A DNA stretch of 64,000 bases, from the NCBI GenBank assembly GCA_016187395.1, contig JACPJV010000006.1:62345-126344 (forward strand), given 5' to 3'. Origin of the DNA: Candidatus Aenigmatarchaeota archaeon (GTDB lineage: Archaea; Aenigmatarchaeota; Aenigmatarchaeia; GW2011-AR5; JACRAC01). Shown here in pieces: positions 1 to 62,443 of the stretch. The position numbers and the translations under genes were made by a program. Below the pieces are notes generated by a model. That model was not told where the DNA came from. It did not search any database and saw only the letters and a list, made by a program, of their open reading frames with translations. Each line of letters opens with the position of its first letter. The first letter of the stretch is position 1.

Positions 1-292
1 GGCAATCTCCCCCAGCCGCTATAATCTTCTCTTTCGCTTTTTGCGAAAAGGCAAAGGAGAAAACACGCACCGCTTTTGTAATCTCGCCGCTGCCTAGGAC
101 TTTCCAGGGCACGATGATGTTTGTACTTTCTTGGGCAGCGTGCTCCAAGGCGTGCAGGTTGACCTCCTCTTTTGCACGGCGCGGTTTCTGCAGTATTTTT
201 GCTATAGCTGCGTATTCCTTGACCTTGCTTTTCCTTAATTGCACTATGAGCTTCTTCAGCTCCGGGTTCGTAGGTCCTGTCGGATGGGGCAT
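1..292 (-). CDS. rpl18e: ribosomal protein L18e (partial; C-terminal end lies beyond window start)
   Basis: Reverse-strand translation from ATG at 292 gives MPHPTGPTNPELKKLIVQLRK...NIIVPWKVLGSGEITKAVRVFSFAFSQKAKEKIIAAGGDC, matching the archaeal L18e pattern (VLG.G.L...AF.FS..A..KI..AGG.C). Not in the supplied ORF track because it is truncated by the window edge. Confidence 0.7.
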   Translation of the reverse strand, partial: MPHPTGPTNPELKKLIVQLRKSKVKEYAAIAKILQKPRRAKEEVNLHALEHAAQESTNIIVPWKVLGSGEITKAVRVFSFAFSQKAKEKIIAAGGDC

Positions 293-337
293 GATATCAC
301 CGAATTACCTTTCAATTTCCTCAACAACTTATTAAAA

Positions 338-395
338 TGCCTTTTCTTCGCATTTATAGTGCTACAAGGAATAAATTATTTCCTTGTTTCACATT
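338..395. repeat. short palindromic repeat, copy A of 'tatagtgNtNcaaggaata...ttccttgtttcac' family
   Basis: tatagtgctacaaggaataaattatttccttgtttcac. Contains perfect hairpin caaggaata/tatttccttg. Related copies at 9476, 29364, 44921, 51511. Confidence 0.6.
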
Positions 396-795
396 ATTCT
401 ATTTCCAATGTGCCTTCCTTGAAGTTTATATGAAGATTGAAATTTTTCAGGAAAGACAGACCAAGCAATCCGTCCACATAACTTCTGGACGGCAGATCAT
501 GAACAATAGCTCTTATAGTCCTGGCTTCCTTATCAAGTACCCTTACTATTTCTAGATTCACAAGAGGGACTTTCTCAACACCGCTCGCCGTTACAGTTTC
601 AATTCTTTCCTTTGAAAGTTCCGGTTTTAATTCCAGAATTTCAGCCACTTCCCAAGGAATCATCACGTAAGTCGCTCCTGTGTCCAAGGCCATACGGATC
701 TTTTTACGGATACCTTTATTCCCAATGAATACATCCAAAACGATAACAGAAGAGTCTTTATCAAAAAGATATTTTGACATGAAAAGCCACCGCAT
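394..795 (-). CDS. retropepsin-like aspartic peptidase (clan AA)
   Basis: 133-aa ORF with ALDTGAT active-site motif and downstream G-rich flap-like segment typical of retroviral-type single-domain aspartyl proteases. Confidence 0.5.
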   Translation of the reverse strand: MRWLFMSKYLFDKDSSVIVLDVFIGNKGIRKKIRMALDTGATYVMIPWEVAEILELKPELSKERIETVTASGVEKVPLVNLEIVRVLDKEARTIRAIVHDLPSRSYVDGLLGLSFLKNFNLHINFKEGTLEIE

Positions 796-1024
796 ATCCC
801 TTTTTAGGAATCTCGCCTGTATAGAAATGGTATGTATATTTGGATCTCTCTTCTTTCATTGCTTTGTACGTTTCGTCCCTGTTCTTGCTGTGTGCAAGTA
901 CCTTAATTTCTACAGGCTCACCTTTTTCATTTTCCTTCAGAACTTCTGCCAGCACCCACTCGTCTTTGTACAGCTTTTTGACTTCTTCGGTTTTCATGAT
1001 ACCACAAAAAATCTTCTCCTGCAA
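761..1024 (-). CDS. hypothetical small protein (87 aa), overlaps 3' end of protease gene
   Basis: ORF only. Lys/Glu-rich, no recognised motif. Overlaps 394..795 by 35 nt on the same strand. Confidence 0.3.
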   Translation of the reverse strand: MQEKIFCGIMKTEEVKKLYKDEWVLAEVLKENEKGEPVEIKVLAHSKNRDETYKAMKEERSKYTYHFYTGEIPKKGYAVAFHVKISF

Positions 1025-1045
1025 CGTATTAAAAGTATTCTCCCG

Positions 1046-1507
1046 ATGAAAAGTATGGTCTTTTACAATCCGATGACAGCGGAAGTTGGCAGCAAGCCCA
1101 CGCTAGTTTATCCTAGCAAGAGTGCGGAGAAGGCATTTGACAGAAGAGACAGGGGATGCGTTGAGCGCCATCTTCAGGGGCTGGCCGACCTGCACAAAGG
1201 CCTGATAACTCCGGATACTGAATATCTATTGACAATAGCCTGGGAAAATTCTGGAGACAGGATGGTTGATTTGTGGATATATTCCAAAGTTGATAGCTAT
1301 GGCTTTGGCCCTCTTATAGACCAGAAAACTTTCAGGGAAAATGTAAGAGACAATGGCATAGGAGTGGCGTGCGGGAATTCTGTTGTTCTTCTCGGAAGGG
1401 AAGAGGAGCATAGGGTTGCCAGAGGTGACCTGAAAAAATATCTGCATGGCGAAAGACCTGAGCTTCCAGCGCGGTTAAGATTGAATGAGAATTTCTATTT
1501 AGAATAG
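1046..1507 (+). CDS. hypothetical protein (~153 aa)
   Basis: Internal ATG (MKSMVFYNPMTAEV...) of the 680..1507 frame. The upstream part of that frame overlaps two minus-strand genes and is rejected. Confidence 0.35.
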   Translation: MKSMVFYNPMTAEVGSKPTLVYPSKSAEKAFDRRDRGCVERHLQGLADLHKGLITPDTEYLLTIAWENSGDRMVDLWIYSKVDSYGFGPLIDQKTFRENVRDNGIGVACGNSVVLLGREEEHRVARGDLKKYLHGERPELPARLRLNENFYLE

Positions 1508-1555
1508 ATTGCTTTATAGCGGCTCTTTATAATCTTTCTTCGCAAACTATTCCTT

Positions 1556-1727
1556 GCAGGGGTGCCCGAGTCTGGAAAATTCACAGAAAAGGGGCAGGTG
1601 TTAAATGAAATTAACTGCCAAACTTAAGAATATCTTAAGTTTTGAGTTTGCTTTCATGCAAACTGTGATAATGAGATATCCTGTGGCTTAGTGCCTTCGA
1701 GGGTTCAAATCCCTTCCCCTGCACTCT
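1556..1727 (+). tRNA. intron-containing class-II tRNA, probably tRNA-Leu(UAA); ~72-nt intron after anticodon-loop position 37 and an over-long D-loop region (possible second small intron)
   Basis: 5' GCAGGGG-UG-CCCG-AGUCUGG... and 3' ...CCUGUGGCUUAGUGCCUUC-GAGGG-UUCAAAU-CCCUU-CCCCUGC-A form a perfect 7-bp acceptor stem, canonical T-arm (GTTCAAAT) and a Leu-like variable arm. The candidate anticodon loop is G-U-UAA-A + A flanking a ~72-nt insert. No CCA encoded. Confidence 0.55.
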
Positions 1728-1760
1728 TAAGATTTGTTCTGCTGATAGTTATCAGTTTAT

Positions 1761-2321
1761 ATGGCGAGTATTTTTTCAATTCGATTTATCAGGGACGCAG
1801 CGAGAGGCAGGAAAAGAATACTAGATGCTGGCTGCGGAAACGGGGTTCAGGCACTTTACCTGGCCAGACTCTATCCAGAAGCTTTGATTCATGGGTATGA
1901 CATTTCTCCCGAAGCAATTGAGAGGGCAAATAGGTATAAACAAAGCCGTGAAGTTCCTAACGCCTGTTTTTCAGTGTCCTCCCATGACAGTTTCGAGCCT
2001 CCCGACAAAATGGATATGATTTATGCAAGCGGCAGCCTTGTGGGAGAGCACGAGATACCTGGAACTGAAGAGCCTCTTTTAGAGGGAGAAGAAATTGTGA
2101 AACGGAGGCTTTCAAGGTTTAGAGAGATGCTTTCGCACGAAGGGATTTTGGCAATTTTGTGGTGCGCAGCTGACGATGCCAACAACAGGCTCAGAAAACT
2201 GGCCGAGGGTTGCGACTTGGCTTACAGAGATGCAAGGACAGGAGACGTGGTATCTTACAAAGAGGACAGCGGCAAAATTATATGCAGATATGCATTGGTT
2301 TTCTGGGCTCTGAATAAATAA
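1761..2321 (+). CDS. class I SAM-dependent methyltransferase
   Basis: Motif I ILDAGCGNG followed by acidic motif II (IHGYDIS). Confidence 0.7.
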   Translation: MASIFSIRFIRDAARGRKRILDAGCGNGVQALYLARLYPEALIHGYDISPEAIERANRYKQSREVPNACFSVSSHDSFEPPDKMDMIYASGSLVGEHEIPGTEEPLLEGEEIVKRRLSRFREMLSHEGILAILWCAADDANNRLRKLAEGCDLAYRDARTGDVVSYKEDSGKIICRYALVFWALNK

Positions 2322-2333
2322 TTATTGTCACCC

Positions 2334-2615
2334 TCACATCTCCCACTCCGGCTTTCTTGGCTTTCTGAGCTCCCTGCATTCCAGGAGGGCGTCGTAAGCG
2401 AAGGCAAGAGAAATGACAAGGCTCGGCATAAGGAGCAGGGTGCTGACCTGATTGACTGCCTCCTGCGGCACGGTAAGGCTCAATGCTGCCATGGAAATGG
2501 ATCCTGCGACAAGCAGGATTCCGAAGACGATGCGCTTGCCGTTGTATACGTAGCCAAGTCCCCAAACGAAGAAGTTGAGGATTGCAGCAATCAAAGGCCG
2601 CCTTTTGAATTTCAT
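2334..2615 (-). CDS. small membrane protein, TM2-domain-like
   Basis: Two hydrophobic helices. WGLGYVYNGK motif resembles the TM2/NINE small membrane protein family. Start taken at internal MKFKRR. Confidence 0.4.
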   Translation of the reverse strand: MKFKRRPLIAAILNFFVWGLGYVYNGKRIVFGILLVAGSISMAALSLTVPQEAVNQVSTLLLMPSLVISLAFAYDALLECRELRKPRKPEWEM

Positions 2616-2703
2616 GAAGGAATCTGGAGGGGAAATTTTAAATAAGAACAATCAGTATCTTGAATTTCGTCAGAGATTTATAGTTCTGAATCGTATATGT
2701 TAA

Positions 2704-3834
2704 ATGCCGCCTGCGCAGACCGATTCGCCGGAGCCTTATTTTGAAGAAAGGATGAGAGGATTCACGTTAGACGGTCGCGAGGTTAGGGATCGCTTTTACC
2801 CCAGCCGCATGTCTGCCTACGGCCTTGCGAAATCCCTCTGCGTTGGCTATGTGGAAAGAAGAGACATTTTTGAACAACGTCTTGCTGAAAGATTCTTTTC
2901 TTACATCGACGAGACGCTTAAGTTAAAAAGCCTTCAGGATAGGAAGCCGACAAAGGAGGAAAGAAAAAGGTACAAGGCATTTGCACAGGCATTCAAGGCG
3001 GTTTTTCAGGCTAATGTGGAGTCGCTTGCCCGCTCGGCTTTGAGGGACAACTATGTAGATGCAGAGTCATATTCAAGACCTGGCGTGTGTTATGAATTTA
3101 ATTTTGGTTATGTTACCGTGCCTCTTGCTGATAGTGAACGTCAGCTAAATTCCGCGATATTCAACAGGCGTGTGCAGAATATCATCAACAGGCTTGCAGA
3201 AAGCCCGGGGTTCAGGACTGTATGTGAAGATTTTATGCTGGTGCAGGAATTAAAGGACGACCCCGAACGCTTTGGAGAGCTTGAAAGGCTCTGCATTCCG
3301 GTTCTCCGGAGATTTGTTGCAACCCACCGCACCAGAGAGTTTGCTTCCAATGACCTGTATCAGGAAGGGTTGCTGGTTGTATGGAGGTCTGCGCAAAGCT
3401 ATGAGGGCAGGAACTTCGCCCGCTTCAGCACGATGGTAAAAGCAGGACTTCATAATAAGTTTTCTAATCTGATGGAGTATTCTATGGCTGACAAAAGAAG
3501 GATAAACCGCGTTGCCTTCAGAATCGGCTCAGGAAATCCTGACGATTCCTATATGGCGCAGAAATGCGACGAGGCTGCTTTCCGTGCCTGGGATATGGAA
3601 CAGAGAGAGCAAAGGGTAAACGGACATTTCGATCCCTTTGCAACCGCTCCATTATCGGATTTGTTCCATCTTCATCCTCGCGTAGAATATTTTGGCGGAG
3701 GGTCTGACTCGGAGTCAGATTGTGAGATTGAAGCGGTTTCCCTGGAGACGAATGAAGTAGTTACAGACGCAAATTTCCCTCATCTGAATGAATATCCGGT
3801 AAGCACGTGGGGAAAGAAGCTGGAGGCAGAATGA
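2704..3834 (+). CDS. hypothetical protein with sigma-70 region-2-like (ECF-like) segment
   Basis: Segment NDLYQEGLLVVWRSAQSYEGRNFARFSTMVKAGLHN matches the DLxQExFLxAWRxxxxFxGxSxFSTWLxxIARN pattern of sigma-70/ECF region 2. No recognisable region 4. Start uncertain. Confidence 0.45.
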   Translation: MPPAQTDSPEPYFEERMRGFTLDGREVRDRFYPSRMSAYGLAKSLCVGYVERRDIFEQRLAERFFSYIDETLKLKSLQDRKPTKEERKRYKAFAQAFKAVFQANVESLARSALRDNYVDAESYSRPGVCYEFNFGYVTVPLADSERQLNSAIFNRRVQNIINRLAESPGFRTVCEDFMLVQELKDDPERFGELERLCIPVLRRFVATHRTREFASNDLYQEGLLVVWRSAQSYEGRNFARFSTMVKAGLHNKFSNLMEYSMADKRRINRVAFRIGSGNPDDSYMAQKCDEAAFRAWDMEQREQRVNGHFDPFATAPLSDLFHLHPRVEYFGGGSDSESDCEIEAVSLETNEVVTDANFPHLNEYPVSTWGKKLEAE

Positions 3835-3885
3835 GCATAAGTCTTTGATACAAAGGTTTTAAATAATCTTCGGCTTCCTGTATTT

Positions 3886-4242
3886 TTGATGTCTATGTTA
3901 GCAAATGCCCAAAGATTTGAGCGCTTTTTGGCAAGAAGGGGAAGCTTCAGGGTACAATGCCCTCGACAAGAACGCGGACGTGTCTTCACAAGACGTAAGT
4001 ATGATGTGTTTTTGGATGGCGAGAAGATCGGCGTTTATACAGAGGTTGAAGGGAGATTTCTAAGCGGCGGGATGACATCCGAAGGCATAATTTCGCAGGT
4101 TTTTGAAGGGCGCGTACCGGGTTATGAATTTTCGACCCCTCAAATAGTTCTTGAATATTCACGGGATAAAGGTACGGGATTTCCTGCAGGAACAAGAACA
4201 TCTTCGCGGAAAGACGGGCATGCGTCAATACCATTTCCCTAA
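3886..4242 (+). CDS. hypothetical protein (118 aa)
   Basis: ORF only. Basic N-terminus. Confidence 0.3.
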   Translation: MMSMLANAQRFERFLARRGSFRVQCPRQERGRVFTRRKYDVFLDGEKIGVYTEVEGRFLSGGMTSEGIISQVFEGRVPGYEFSTPQIVLEYSRDKGTGFPAGTRTSSRKDGHASIPFP

Positions 4243-4857
4243 TCACAACTCCTTCCTGACTAATTTTGCGAATTCCTTTGCGCGCTCTTCTATGATATCT
4301 AAAGCGCGTATGAACACATCAGCCCCCGAAAGTCCTGTTGTTGACTCTATGTTGAATGTAAAACCACCGCCGCCTTTTGAATACCCTATTGTTGCTGCCT
4401 GATGCTTGGCGTGGTTTTTGCCTATTCCAAGCCTTGCAACTGCCACGAGATCGACATTTTGCCCTTCCAGAAGCTCTGCTATAGGTATTTTCATGTCATC
4501 CGGCTGCACGTGCTTGTCGTCGCTTTCCATGTCTCCGGAATAGACCGTGGAAGGGCCGTTCTTTTTCAGCCTCAGCTTTGCAGTGCAGTTGCTGCATCCC
4601 TTTCCTCCGCATTTGCACTCTTCTGAAAGCTGATAGCCGTTTGGCCATTTGAGCGGAATCATTGCAAGCCTGTGGGCCAGAATCTCGTCGACAAGCCCTG
4701 AATTGTTAACCGTGATATCGACGTAGTCGACAGCCATCACTGGAATTTCGCTGTAAGCTACGCGCCTTAGCGCATTCGCAAAGCCTGCGCTTATGTCCTT
4801 TACAGAAACCTTCAATATTTTTCCTTTATTCTTGACAACATTTACTTCCATGATCAT
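4243..4857 (-). CDS. rpoD: DNA-directed RNA polymerase subunit D (Rpo3), archaeal, with Fe-S cluster cysteines
   Basis: 204 aa. Rpb3/RpoA-insert fold signature (VDYVDITVNNSGLVDEILAHRLAMIPL). Cys cluster CKCGGKGCSNC typical of archaeal subunit D 4Fe-4S domain. Lies downstream of rps11 as in the archaeal operon. Confidence 0.85.
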   Translation of the reverse strand: MIMEVNVVKNKGKILKVSVKDISAGFANALRRVAYSEIPVMAVDYVDITVNNSGLVDEILAHRLAMIPLKWPNGYQLSEECKCGGKGCSNCTAKLRLKKNGPSTVYSGDMESDDKHVQPDDMKIPIAELLEGQNVDLVAVARLGIGKNHAKHQAATIGYSKGGGGFTFNIESTTGLSGADVFIRALDIIEERAKEFAKLVRKEL

Positions 4858-4937
4858 TACCTCAACCTCCTTTTTGCAGGATTATTATTAAAGGTTTCTG
4901 ATACCGCTCTTTTGATCTGCTGTTGTTTTGCCTTACT

Positions 4938-5327
4938 TTACACTCTTCTTCCTCTCCTGCCTCCCTTCTTTCTGCTGCTATCGTGTGAAATAGGGGTCGT
5001 CTCTTCTATCGAGATTATTTTAAAACCTGCTCGTGCAAGCGCCCTGACAGCGGGCTGTGCGCCCTGCCCGGGTATCCTGGACTTGTTATGGCCCGGAGCG
5101 CGTATCCTGATATGAAGGCCTGTTATTCCTGCGTTCTTTGCAGCGTCTGCCGCTTTTTGCGCGGCGCGCATTGCAACAAACGGCTTGCCTTTCATCATGT
5201 CGCGGTCTGTAACCATTCCCCCTGATATAATGCTTATCGTCTCGCAGCCTGTTATATCGGTTATATGTATTATTGTGTTATTAACAGACGAGTATATCCG
5301 CGCAACTCCGATCTTATCCTTCATCAT
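4938..5327 (-). CDS. rps11: 30S ribosomal protein S11 (uS11)
   Basis: 129 aa. [21 protein letters not shown]...[14 protein letters not shown] pattern. Confidence 0.9.
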
Positions 5328-5354
5328 CGTAACACACCTCGTTCACTTTCGATC

Positions 5355-5837
5355 TCACGATGCCTCCTTTTTAATTTCATATGCCCTGGAAGATTCCACG
5401 CTTCCTTCAAGCCCGGCAGGCACTATATAACCCGGCCATTCAACGACCTTTCCGCCCACTTTGACGTGGCCGTGCACGATCATTTGCCTTGCCTCTTTAA
5501 GGCTTTTCGCAACCCCTTTTTTATGGACAATTGTCTCCAGCCGGCGGGATAAAAGATCTTCAAGCTTAAGGCTGAGCACGTCCTCAGGATTGTTCACTGT
5601 TATTCCCATCTTCCTGAGCCTCTGCATCATCTCCTCTTTCAGCTTAGGGTTTGATTCTACCAAAAGATCGCGAGCCCTTTGCCTGAAGATTCTTACAACC
5701 GCTTCTGCCTTCCATATCTCCTTTTTTCTGCGAAGCCCGTATTTTTTCATCATGGATTTTTCATTCGTTATCCTATTCTTGTCATAAGGCTTCAGCGGCC
5801 TTGAATATTTCCTTCTATGCCTTCTTGGATGACCCAT
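5355..5837 (-). CDS. rps4: 30S ribosomal protein S4 (uS4)
   Basis: 160 aa. N-terminal GHPRRHRRKYSRP and S4 RNA-binding domain (RRLETIVHKKGVAKSLKEARQMIVHGHVKVGG). Confidence 0.85.
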   Translation of the reverse strand: MGHPRRHRRKYSRPLKPYDKNRITNEKSMMKKYGLRRKKEIWKAEAVVRIFRQRARDLLVESNPKLKEEMMQRLRKMGITVNNPEDVLSLKLEDLLSRRLETIVHKKGVAKSLKEARQMIVHGHVKVGGKVVEWPGYIVPAGLEGSVESSRAYEIKKEAS

Positions 5838-6124
5838 ATATCATTCACCATTGAACTGCCGCCCTCAGCTCGCCTCACTGCGGTCGAAGTGTAAATTTCT
5901 TCCTTGTTCGGCGGCTTCGCTTGGCGGATGACCCATACGAAACACACCTCACGTTTTGCCAATGCAAAATGATTTGCCAGAATGCAAACCGACGAACCTT
6001 CGGTTCGTCCATTCACTCGCAAATCCGTTCACTTTCAAACGTGCATACACTTTCGCCTTCTTGCATTTGCTTCTTTCAGATCCTCAGACTTCTTTCCTGC
6101 TTTATTTTTTCCCATGTTGCCCAG

Positions 6125-6685
6125 CTATTTTTTATCAGCAGGCTTTGGCGCAGGCTTGGCTTCGGCAGGCTTTGCTGCTGGCTGGGCGGCCTTCTTTACA
6201 ACGCCTACAGTGCGCCCGCCTCCTCCTGAGCGCGTCCTCTGCCCGCGCACAGGCAATCCCAGCTCGTGCCTTACTCCGCGGTATGCACGGATGCTTTTCA
6301 AAAAGTTAATATCGTTCATTTTCTGAAGCTTAAGCCTGTCTCCGTAAAAATGCATGTCTGCGCCTGTCTCAATGCTCTTGCGCCGGTTTAACATCCATCC
6401 CGGCAGTTGCGGATTTTGCAAAAAGGATTCTACGGCTTTGATCTCGTCCGGCGTAAGGTCGGATATTCTCTTGTTCGGATCAATGCCTGTTTTTGCGCAA
6501 AGTGCGCTTGAAAATGAATAGCCAATGCCCTTGATTCCCTTAAGGGCGTAGCGAACCCGCAGTGCGCTGTTGATATCTGTATTGGCAATTCTGAGATAAC
6601 TTCTCGTGTCCTTTTTCTCAATCTTCTTATGCTTCTGATCCTTTGCCTCATTTTTGTCAATCTCTGCCATCGCAACCAACCTCAC
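6125..6685 (-). CDS. rps13: 30S ribosomal protein S13 (uS13) with Lys/Ala/Pro-rich C-terminal tail
   Basis: LRIANTDINSALRVRYALKGIKGIGYSFSSALCAKTGIDPNKRISDLTPDE matches uS13. True start may be the internal MAEIDKNE (6670). Confidence 0.85.
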   Translation of the reverse strand: MRLVAMAEIDKNEAKDQKHKKIEKKDTRSYLRIANTDINSALRVRYALKGIKGIGYSFSSALCAKTGIDPNKRISDLTPDEIKAVESFLQNPQLPGWMLNRRKSIETGADMHFYGDRLKLQKMNDINFLKSIRAYRGVRHELGLPVRGQRTRSGGGGRTVGVVKKAAQPAAKPAEAKPAPKPADKK

Positions 6686-7197
6686 AATAACTTGAGAATA
6701 AAGGATTTAAATGTGGCGAAGTCATTAAGGCAAAGGATAAGGTTGTCGATTAGTTGTCGGTGAAAAGGCAGGATAAAGGTCGAATGAATTTGACTCCTTC
6801 CGTCCTTCAAGCCGTAGGTAAGACAAAAATCAGTAGAAATGGAATATGCCAAAAAAATAGCTTTCCTTTTCCATTTAATTTTTCCTGTAATCTCTATTTG
6901 CTATCTTCGGAAGCCTCCTCTTAAAGCCCACGGCTTTAGCCGTGGGATAAGATATGGAAGGCTTCCGAGATGCTTTGCTCCGAGAAACCCCCGACTTTAG
7001 GTGGGGGAGAATACAGAGCAAATCATCTCCTCGTCCACTTCAGTTTTTTTGCAGACGTGCCTCTGAGGGAAAAGGACTCGCATTTCCCGGAGCAGAACCA
7101 GAGCGGCTTTCCGTGCCCGCTGACGAAAAGCTTGCCTGTTCCCTGTTCTATGCTGGCTGAACAAAAGGAGCATTTTGGCATGGGTATCACGAGATGA

Positions 7198-29363: not shown

Positions 29364-29410
29364 TTTCACTATATAGTGCTGCAAGGAATAATCATTTTCT
29401 TGTTTCACTC
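29364..29410. repeat. short palindromic repeat, copy C of the 'cactatatagtgctgcaaggaata...ttcttgtttcac' family
   Basis: tttcactatatagtgctgcaaggaataatcattttcttgtttcac immediately 3' of the TadC-like gene. Preceded at 29299-29321 by hairpin caggaggaacttcgttcctcc. Confidence 0.55.
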
Positions 29411-49888: not shown

Positions 49889-50035
49889 GTGGGCCTGACG
49901 GGATTTGAACCCGCAACATCTTGCTTAAGAGGCAAGCGCTCTATTCCCTCCGTTCCCTTCCATCCCTTTCTTTGGGGTTCTCCAAGACCTTTCTTTCGGG
50001 AAAGAAAGGGATTGGACCAGGTTGAGCTACAGGCC
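49889..50035 (-). tRNA. tRNA-Lys(CUU) with a ~73-nt intron in the D-loop (non-canonical position ~20/21)
   Basis: Minus-strand read GGGCCUG-UA-GCUC-AACCUGGU[intron]A-GAGC-G-CUUGC-CUCUUAA-GCAAG-AUGUU-GCGGG-UUCAAAU-CCCGU-CAGGCCC-A. All four stems pair (one G-U in T-stem), U33 present, anticodon CUU. Intron contains hairpin CCUUUCUUUCCCGAAAGAAAGG. No CCA encoded. Confidence 0.8.
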
Positions 50036-50104
50036 CTTGGATGGAGAATAGGGAATTAGAAGATATTAAAATCATAGAGGTGATTTTCTATTCAGTGTGA
50101 TTTC

Positions 50105-61642: not shown

Positions 61643-62443
61643 ATGGTGAGAAAAATGGACAAAAAGAACAATGGACCAAAAAGGAGAGAGCCTATAGACG
61701 TCTACCTGGCAGAGCTTGAGGTACATATAGGGGTAAGAGGGCTCGATGAAGACCCGACGTTCGATTCAAGCTGGAGACGTGTCAAAGAGGAAATAGAATC
61801 ATTAAAAGCAAGGGCATTGGGAGACGGTCTTCTGGGATTCGGGCCGCGCAGGGTTTTGGACGCAGACCTTGCAAGGGAAATACCCAGAGCAGTAAGAACA
61901 GGAAGCCCCCTGGCACTAGGTTTCGTAGACGTAGACAAATTTGGAGATTTTAACAACAGATACGGTCACGAAGTAGGCGATCAAGTATTGATAGCAGTGG
62001 GCATGGCAATCAGAAATTCCACACGACCAGAAGACTACCTCTTCAGGCCTGGAGGCGACGAATTGGCATACCTTCTGCCAAGGGCTGACCTGAAAGGAGC
62101 AGAAGTAGTGGCACGAAGAATAAAGGATCATATGGAAGATTATCCGGTGAAGGTTGGAGACAAGAGAATTCCAATTACTCTAAGCCAGGGCGTGACTTAT
62201 TGGGATCCGAAAATACTCCGCACATCCGTATATCCTGGTGAACTTACCCCGGAAATTGTTGAAGGGGTTTCTTCCAGAATCCTCACGCAGGCTGATTTAG
62301 CCGCGTATGCATGCAAGGAAAACGGAAGAGACGGAATATACGCCTGGATAGGCGGAGAGCCTCCAAGGAACAAGGAACTTTTTGATGCCTTGATGAGGGA
62401 AAGACCGGATTTAATGCAAAGCTTCCTCAGGAGGGTTGTATGA
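61643..62443 (+). CDS. GGDEF-domain (diguanylate-cyclase-like) protein with GGDEL variant motif
   Basis: LALGFVDVDKFGDFNNRYGHEVGDQVLIAVGMAI...RPGGDELAYLL follows the GGDEF-domain pattern (D.D.FK.INDTYGH..GD.VL......RYGG[DE]EF). Confidence 0.5.
   Translation: MVRKMDKKNNGPKRREPIDVYLAELEVHIGVRGLDEDPTFDSSWRRVKEEIESLKARALGDGLLGFGPRRVLDADLAREIPRAVRTGSPLALGFVDVDKFGDFNNRYGHEVGDQVLIAVGMAIRNSTRPEDYLFRPGGDELAYLLPRADLKGAEVVARRIKDHMEDYPVKVGDKRIPITLSQGVTYWDPKILRTSVYPGELTPEIVEGVSSRILTQADLAAYACKENGRDGIYAWIGGEPPRNKELFDALMRERPDLMQSFLRRVV

Follow-up and report, generated by a model that had tools for sequence, protein, structure and literature searches.

In the 64,000-nt stretch of DNA analyzed here (the window; positions 62,345 to 126,344 of contig JACPJV010000006.1, from the assembly GCA_016187395.1 of a Candidatus Aenigmatarchaeota archaeon, a very small organism of groundwater), a conserved operon of ribosomal-protein and RNA polymerase genes is interrupted between rpoD, which encodes RNA polymerase subunit D, and rpl18e, which encodes ribosomal protein L18e. 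From the end of rpoD at 4243 to the start of L18e at 292 lies a 3.9-kb spacer holding seven open reading frames (ORFs) and a tRNA-Leu(UAA) gene. We consider it probable that an ancestral arrangement, in which rpoD, tRNA-Leu and L18e followed one another on a single strand, spaced over no more than a few hundred bases, was expanded to 3.9 kb by local rearrangement and piecemeal gene gain, and not by the arrival of one foreign element. Accessory genes of the lineage itself make up most of the spacer, and as a genome feature the locus has the look of routine reshuffling rather than of a mobile element from outside. One of the spacer genes encodes a 376-aa protein that carries a predicted sigma-70 region-2-like domain, clear at the level of its family, and this sigma-like gene is the only part of the locus meriting follow-up.

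Judged by gene order, the 3.9-kb spacer is a derived expansion, since in relatives the junction of rpoD, tRNA-Leu and L18e takes up no more than some hundreds of bases. In Halobacteria rpoD, tRNA-Leu(CAG) and L18e all lie on the same strand, an intron-bearing tRNA-Leu stands between rpoD and L18e in two Aenigmarchaeota loci (L002 and L004) and in a Methanosarcinales metagenome-assembled genome (MAG; L017), and tRNA-Leu directly follows rpoD in L001, L027, L049, and L063. Measured from the end of the rpoD match, near residue 160, L18e starts ~500-800 nt downstream in Halobacteria, L017, further metagenome contigs and two Aenigmarchaeota, as against ~4,090 nt in the window, and no relative has the same gene content between the two genes. 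A preliminary description of this DNA had already placed the end of rpoD at 4243 and the start of L18e at 292 with ~3.9 kb between them, and profile matches to both flanks confirm this. It had also held that rpoD is normally followed directly by rpl18e; the two are indeed adjacent in some relatives, but in just 35 of 73 related loci (seven diverse L18e queries), and where they are adjacent a tRNA-Leu usually lies between them. L18e is missing near rpoD in all Archaeoglobi-named loci and in most Aenigmarchaeota loci (it is not within 5-10 kb of rpoD in L001, L003, L006, L008, L027, and L049), and rps13, rps4, and rps11 stand apart from rpoD in L003, L005, and L008; the order of genes around this operon is thus variable across the phylum. 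None of the seven spacer ORFs was found in the 73 rpoD loci of relatives. The spacer and its flanking genes are composed as follows.

1-292, minus strand: rpl18e (L18e), 5' part (NF003079 9.5e-27; Ribosomal_L27A 1e-10)
355-392, minus strand: 38-nt hairpin element (second copy at 29372-29408, 89% identity, E 8e-5)
394-780, minus strand: retropepsin-like (clan AA) aspartic protease, 128 aa (PF13975, gag-asp_proteas, 8e-15; TIGR02281 1.7e-12; NCBI MBI2583178.1)
761-1024, minus strand: small ORF, 78 aa (ATG 997) or 87 aa (TTG 1024) (PADLOC PDC-M08A 7e-7)
1055-1507, plus strand: 150-aa ORF of an Aenigmarchaeota family (NCBI HYW25_00800)
1556-1723, plus strand: tRNA-Leu(UAA) with three inferred introns (spliced product called by ARAGORN without the intron option)
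1761-2321, plus strand: class I S-adenosylmethionine-dependent methyltransferase, 186 aa (PF13847, Methyltransf_31, 1.1e-14)
2334-2615, minus strand: small hydrophobic ORF, predicted membrane protein, 93 aa (ATG 2615) or 105 aa (TTG 2651) (ORF call; 93 aa on Logan contig L087)
2704-3834, plus strand: 376-aa sigma-like protein of a DPANN family (identical to NCBI HYW25_00820; Sigma70_r2 21.5 bits)
3889-4242, plus strand: 117-aa orphan ORF (NCBI HYW25_00825)
4243-4857, minus strand: rpoD (RNA polymerase subunit D), 204 aa (NF001988 2.5e-61; PF01000 and PF01193)
4938-5327, minus strand: rps11
5355-5837, minus strand: rps4
6125-6685, minus strand: rps13

The tRNA-Leu(UAA) gene is, on the evidence of its exons and introns, an ancestral resident of the rpoD/L18e junction, and it is inverted here because it lies on the strand opposite to rpoD, 2.5 kb distant, while relatives keep it on the same strand. 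The gene at 1556-1723 was missed by default ARAGORN and by Rfam (E<=1), and ARAGORN with anticodon-loop introns called tRNA-Leu(UAA) only after ~10-12 nt had been deleted from the D-loop in a deletion scan. Three introns were inferred, at 1576-1586 (D-loop), 1599-1621 (position 30/31), and 1629-1677 (the canonical position 37/38), and their removal gives an 85-nt product that ARAGORN, run with the intron option off, calls a tRNA-Leu(UAA) with a regular class II cloverleaf and a fully paired anticodon stem, CAGGA/UCCUG. The first ARAGORN model, with a single 72-nt intron, left a U-U mismatch in that stem and was superseded by the three-intron model after the relatives had been compared. The exons align across the rpoD-adjacent tRNA-Leu genes compared, D-loop inserts occur at the same place in L002 and L004, an insert follows CAGG in L002 and L027 as in the window, and the canonical intron shares CTTAAGTTTTGA...ATGAGA(A/T)ATCCTG with L001; in L027 the orthologous rpoD-adjacent tRNA-Leu was read from its T-loop motif and sequence. 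Minimum free energy folds contain exon-intron helices, one of them common to L001, without a clean bulge-helix-bulge motif, and such a motif can be drawn by hand for the canonical intron, with CUUA/UGAG as the central helix. The intron-containing tRNA-Leu-like gene of the preliminary description is thus real, whereas its casting as cargo is contradicted by the exon and intron homology to the rpoD-adjacent tRNA-Leu genes of L001, L002, and L004, and it is no demonstrable integration target. A second intron-containing tRNA gene in the window, a tRNA-Leu(GAG) with a 51-nt intron at 49889-50036 on the minus strand, was likewise found only with introns allowed in ARAGORN, which detected no intron-less tRNA in the whole 64 kb.

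Two further spacer genes, encoding the methyltransferase and the 150-aa ORF, are by homology native Aenigmarchaeota genes, because their Aenigmarchaeota homologues lie in or beside the main (S10/spc-type) ribosomal-protein operon. Methyltransferase homologues sharing 41-48% identity were returned by a homologous-protein search, one of them from another Aenigmarchaeota MAG, and on two Aenigmarchaeota contigs a homologue sits exactly between L2 and S19 in that operon (L082:10001-10564 and L083:2588-3139). The 150-aa ORF, which has no Pfam or NCBIfam match, finds two paralogues just upstream of L3 on contig L082 (BLASTP 2e-13 and 5e-11). The ribosomal-protein operons of L082 and L083 hold many other small non-ribosomal ORFs, including NUDIX, MazG, a response regulator and several of no known kind. 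The placement of the methyltransferase between L2 and S19 elsewhere and beside tRNA-Leu here suggests that it has the conserved task of modifying the ribosome or some component of translation.

Under the reading that we favor, at least one inversion would have flipped the block bearing the tRNA. The operon is now physically split: the rps13-rps4-rps11-rpoD unit, of which rpoD is the final gene, ends convergently against five plus-strand features, and on the strand that carries L18e, the protease pair and then a 101-nt spacer come before it. Two transcription units would thus exist today, rps13-rps4-rps11-rpoD and (small ORF-protease)-L18e-ORF137-L13-S9, the second served by a promoter within 293-393 or upstream of the protease pair. 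TATA-like AT-rich boxes can be read at ~1525-1532, upstream of the tRNA, and at ~2676-2682, upstream of the sigma-like gene, and therefore both of these genes would use archaeal promoters. The hairpin element at 355-392 lies inside the 101-nt spacer; it adjoins the 3' end of the protease gene, and ~60 nt separate it from L18e downstream. It consists of a hairpin, CAAGGAA..TTCCTTG, followed on the minus strand by a CACTATAAA-like sequence / CACTATA(A/T)A box, and both it and its second copy at 29372-29408 stand directly 3' of the stop of a minus-strand gene, so that the element may be a shared terminator and promoter cassette. A repeat copy had been described at 338-395; the match holds for 355-392 but the remainder of that interval is unmatched, and no copy occurs at the rpoD-proximal edge.

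The remaining spacer genes are small. The protease, 133 aa long if begun at the upstream ATG at 795, combines a retropepsin-like profile match with the catalytic DTGA motif (LDTGAT), and the small ORF (called as 78 aa on L087), for which no Pfam family was matched, overlaps it in the same direction. PADLOC assigns the small ORF to PDC-M08A (7e-7) and the protease to PDC-M08B (1.3e-7), so that both parts of the system are adjacent, and the pair is the sole part of the block that looks, from these profile matches, like a typical horizontally moving module. The hydrophobic ORF had been labeled TM2-like, a label without profile support, as 2334-2651 on the minus strand has no Pfam or NCBIfam match at E<=1. 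The 117-aa ORF is convergent with rpoD, their stop codons abutting, and gave no family match in Pfam, NCBIfam, PHROGs, or PADLOC and no tblastn match among 84 loci at E<0.1. Apart from that label and from the 150-aa and 78/87-aa ORFs, which had been missed, the earlier gene list mostly stands.

The arrangement itself is not an assembly artefact, because Logan contigs from independent assemblies reproduce the locus at 100%: three contigs from two Sequence Read Archive runs are identical to window positions 3384-6956, 3073-4408, and 3372-1, and bridge both junctions. One of these, L087, extends past the start of the window and shows L18e whole, at 122 aa, starting at 292 on the minus strand; beyond the window start it carries L18e, a 137-aa ORF, L13, S9, and vapBC in that order (L087:3454-5509). 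The 137-aa ORF, which has no assigned family, is thus a further insert in the same operon, separating L18e from L13, and the vapBC toxin-antitoxin pair (PIN and VapB) follows directly after S9 on the opposite strand; in other archaea rpoN is the usual gene after S9. The rpoD of the window is of a short form that lacks the cysteine-rich Fe-S (ferredoxin-like) insert, as are those of L001 and L049, and the insert is present in L002, L004, and L017. Upstream of rps13, a two-hairpin structured stretch at 6900-7020 on the minus strand weakly resembles an H/ACA snoRNA model of Rfam (21 bits, E 0.88), so that an archaeal small RNA, of the H/ACA or another type, may be encoded there. Its position is that of tRNA-Ser in halobacteria, and L001 and L027 have a tRNA T-loop motif or tRNA call there.

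The preliminary description had taken the block to be horizontally acquired cargo, a view that mostly does not hold. A single integrative element that had inserted at the tRNA gene and carried a sigma factor of bacterial type with it would explain why the block adjoins a tRNA gene and why its ORFs are absent from the rpoD loci of relatives; it would also suit the PDC-M08-like pair, which is the kind of module that moves horizontally, and the ultimately bacterial type of the sigma region-2 domain. However, no integrase or recombinase match was obtained for any of the seven ORFs (Pfam, NCBIfam, and PHROGs), no flanking direct (att) repeats spanning the block were found, and there is no partial tRNA copy in 293-4243. 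The composition of the block is equally unremarkable, with a GC content of 0.448 that falls within the range of same-size windows of the stretch (mean 0.467, sd 0.024), and a tetranucleotide distance that ranks 76 of 121 and is typical of the window. Neither blastn of the block against phage and plasmid collections nor a scan of IMG/VR for the sigma-like family gave a match. Moreover, the tRNA is the ancestral resident of the junction, homologues of the methyltransferase and the 150-aa ORF lie in ribosomal contexts in Aenigmarchaeota, and the sigma-like family occurs in unrelated housekeeping contexts of other archaeal (DPANN) genomes, all of which makes such an element quite improbable. A mis-assembly or binning chimera, for which one could point to the origin of the sequence in a MAG, is hardly credible when the three Logan contigs bridge the junctions and nearly the whole interior, bar an 11-nt gap in the sigma-like gene, and when homogeneous composition also speaks against it. 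It could further be argued that the wide spacer is the old state in this lineage and that the compact arrangement arose elsewhere by secondary compaction, given that L001 and L049 share the short form of rpoD with the window but have no L18e after it. Yet the compact order of rpoD, tRNA-Leu, and L18e is common to lineages as distant as Halobacteria, the Methanosarcinales MAG and two Aenigmarchaeota, so that its independent origin is unlikely, and L001 and L049 themselves, in contrast to the window, still have a co-oriented tRNA-Leu immediately behind rpoD; we regard this scenario as very improbable.

Several observations weigh against expansion by rearrangement and piecemeal gain. Inverted repeats able to mediate the inversion were not found, save a 14-nt pair that is probably due to chance, and for the 117-aa, 93-aa, and 78-aa ORFs no homologue was traced in relatives. 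The genome and metagenome collections searched contain no close relative, the best rpoD identity being just 56%, and for that reason the order, timing and number of events cannot be reconstructed. It is accordingly conceivable that the block entered long ago in one insertion and has lost the marks of it. Rearrangement and piecemeal gain nevertheless remain our preferred explanation of the locus.

The sigma-like gene deserves a fuller account. Its 376-aa product, whose identical NCBI entry comes from a 127-kb contig of a Candidatus Aenigmarchaeota MAG, begins with an N-terminal domain of no recognized kind (residues ~10-165), followed by the sigma-70 region-2-like domain (~179-270; nt 3238-3513) and a partly disordered C-terminus, in which an NFPHLNE motif is conserved in the family. 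A segment of the protein had been said to fit sigma-70/ECF (extracytoplasmic function) region 2. Taken alone, the protein stays below the Pfam threshold, its Sigma70_r2 match (E 2e-4, residues 199-241) reaching 21.5 bits where the gathering score is 24, and it has no match to Sigma70_r4. Weak matches to TIGR02937 (E 4e-5) and to phage sigma PHROGs were also obtained; the assignment stands at the family level. A family profile, seeded with the 376-aa protein and one word-search homologue from Woesearchaeota (39% identity) and searched against 1.8 billion representatives, retrieved 43 proteins at E<1e-10, mostly of 340-560 aa, and the family comprises ~40 clusters at 50% identity. The tail of matches after these 43 proteins consists mostly of proteins of 146-264 aa, and eight of ten checked were genuine Sigma70_r2 proteins, some with region 4, such proteins being reached at library-wide E values of 1e-6 to 1e-4; two tail proteins cluster with Lactobacillales sigma factors. 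Sigma70_r2 itself is matched by 18 of 45 aligned family members (best 1.1e-8), and hhalign aligned the family to the short sigma set with a probability of 99.4% (E 5.6e-21, 101 columns), a comparison that is partly circular in that the short set was chosen via family-profile matches. Regions 3 and 4 were not matched in any of the 45 members at E<=0.01, nor in the 376-aa protein at E<=1.

Conservation within the family is concentrated in a recognizable pattern. Q220, Y233, L249, R265, and W296 are invariant, and E221, W227, F238, and F241 are conserved in at least 90% of members; by inspection, the conserved residues align with the QE..W...F...FST pattern of sigma regions 2.1-2.2, of which 2.2 is core-binding. 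In sigma factors this face binds the clamp helices of the beta-prime subunit. The YATWW-type aromatics of group 1 sigmas (region 2.3, -10 melting) are, again by inspection, replaced by TMVKAGLHNKF, a place at which ECF sigmas differ too. An AlphaFold2 model built from the 45-sequence alignment reached a mean predicted local distance difference test score (pLDDT) of 84.8, and a model from a two-sequence alignment was unusable (pLDDT 41). C-terminal to region 2 the model has a low-confidence linker, helices at 283-306 and 317-323, short strands, and a low-confidence segment at 324-339.

Named family members come from Woesearchaeota, Aenigmarchaeota or organisms listed as "archaeon," and a word-indexed protein search with the 45-member profile returned four proteins. 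The six genomic contexts examined besides the window are ordinary archaeal chromosomal neighborhoods, and no conserved neighbor of the family was found across the seven; one member (L045) lies beside Spt5/L11 and that of the window beside rpoD. The sigma-like domain had been called foreign to archaeal transcription, but it is not foreign to this archaeal group, as the family is found in archaeal chromosomal contexts only and sigma-70-like genes have already been reported from DPANN archaea. Two candidates for membership were set aside: an upstream 347-aa ORF in Woesearchaeota locus L044 was rejected as a paralogue of the sigma-like protein, and P0044 (L081; E 9e-8, region-2 part only), whose context of FtsA, FtsZ, and formyltransferase looks bacterial, was not counted as family. 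The gene called on L081 does not translate to P0044 under the translation used, and the source of P0044 may be a bacterium with an alternative genetic code. On another contig, from a metagenome and presumed to be of DPANN origin, a eukaryotic-type topoisomerase I gene (Pfam Topoisom_I; L079:7225-8277) is convergent and overlapping with a family member.

What the protein does can be addressed with far less confidence. That it is a true sigma factor directing promoter recognition seems very unlikely to us. The region-2 homology is robust at the family level, the top Foldseek matches in the PDB are almost all sigma chains, and the gene adjoins rpoD in the window and Spt5/L11 in L045; however, no member of the 45 has a region 3 or 4, the -10 melting aromatics of group 1 sigmas are not visible by inspection, no conserved gene neighborhood exists, this archaeon is not expected to have an RNA polymerase of bacterial type, and archaeal initiation proceeds through TBP, TFB, and TFE (PMC7289017). 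In the role that we prefer, tentatively and although it is on balance unlikely, the region-2-like domain would dock on the clamp coiled-coil of RNA polymerase, the protein being a regulator and not a promoter-specificity sigma. Our confidence in this docking is low because its support consists of residue conservation. More specifically, the family might genuinely work with the archaeal RNA polymerase by binding the Rpo1N clamp coiled-coil, where TFE and Spt5 dock and which is homologous to the sigma-2 site on beta-prime; on present sequence comparisons we hold this to be distinctly unlikely. Structural comparison also tempers the sigma assignment. The sigma chains that fill nearly all of the top 50 Foldseek PDB matches do so without significance (E>=0.07, TM<=0.24), and a search of PDB sequences with the family profile found no sigma chain, only spurious uL29 matches.

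Overall, the locus illustrates how readily the highly conserved ribosomal and RNA polymerase operons of DPANN archaea can take up accessory genes, inversions and modules of toxin-antitoxin or defence type, interruptions of this sort being common in such genomes, and it cautions that the interruption of an operon beside a tRNA gene is not necessarily a mobile element. The family of the 376-aa gene is coherent and was seen in archaeal (DPANN) genomes only; it retains the core-binding face of sigma region 2 without the DNA-binding region 4. Sigma-like genes in DPANN archaea were known earlier; this family, which now has a confident structure model, offers a concrete candidate for testing how such genes might act alongside TBP, TFB, and TFE. 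Were it indeed a polymerase partner, no transcription factor derived from sigma would have been known before it to work with a polymerase of archaeal type.

Comparison with known systems places each component of the locus. The halobacterial equivalent of the alpha operon shares the series rps13-rps4-rps11-rpoD ... tRNA-Leu ... L18e-L13-S9, with tRNA-Leu resident in the spacer, whereas the window has 3.9 kb in place of a few hundred bases, an inverted tRNA with a UAA and not a CAG anticodon and three introns, and seven extra ORFs. Haloarcula marismortui was reportedly the organism in which the arrangement of rpoD, tRNA-Leu and L18e came to light, early in the 1990s. Archaeal integrative elements that target tRNA genes, such as integrase-bearing proviruses and plasmids, resemble the locus in that a tRNA gene adjoins, but the block lacks an integrase gene, a tRNA segment duplicated as att, and genes of viruses or plasmids. 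PDC-M08, a small protein A with a retropepsin-like protein B, is matched in both components, which are adjacent, overlapping and co-directional; it is itself no more than a candidate two-gene system of defence or toxin-antitoxin type. The introns of the tRNA-Leu are nothing unusual for the multi-intron archaeal class, found in Thermoproteales, Methanopyrus, and DPANN archaea, in which a gene may hold up to three introns, some of them in the D-loop or anticodon stem and so outside the canonical position (PMC4090602 and PMC5829648 review the class). With bacterial group 4 (ECF) and other small sigma-70 factors the 376-aa family shares a homologous region 2 in which the QE, W, and F(S)T positions are kept; it differs from ECF sigmas in having no region 4, in an extra ~170-aa N-terminal domain and a C-terminal tail, and in its occurrence in archaeal genomes without a bacterial-type polymerase, with no anti-sigma partner or conserved neighbor. 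Also comparable are the genes classified as sigma-70 that were reported from DPANN archaea, chiefly Woesearchaeota, without anti-sigma factors and with mechanism unknown (Castelle et al., 2021; PMC8204110). Their fam00359, possibly the same family, resembles the 376-aa family, of which only some members reach the Pfam threshold, in its sigma-70-like annotation, its DPANN distribution with Woesearchaeota prominent and its lack of anti-sigma factors.

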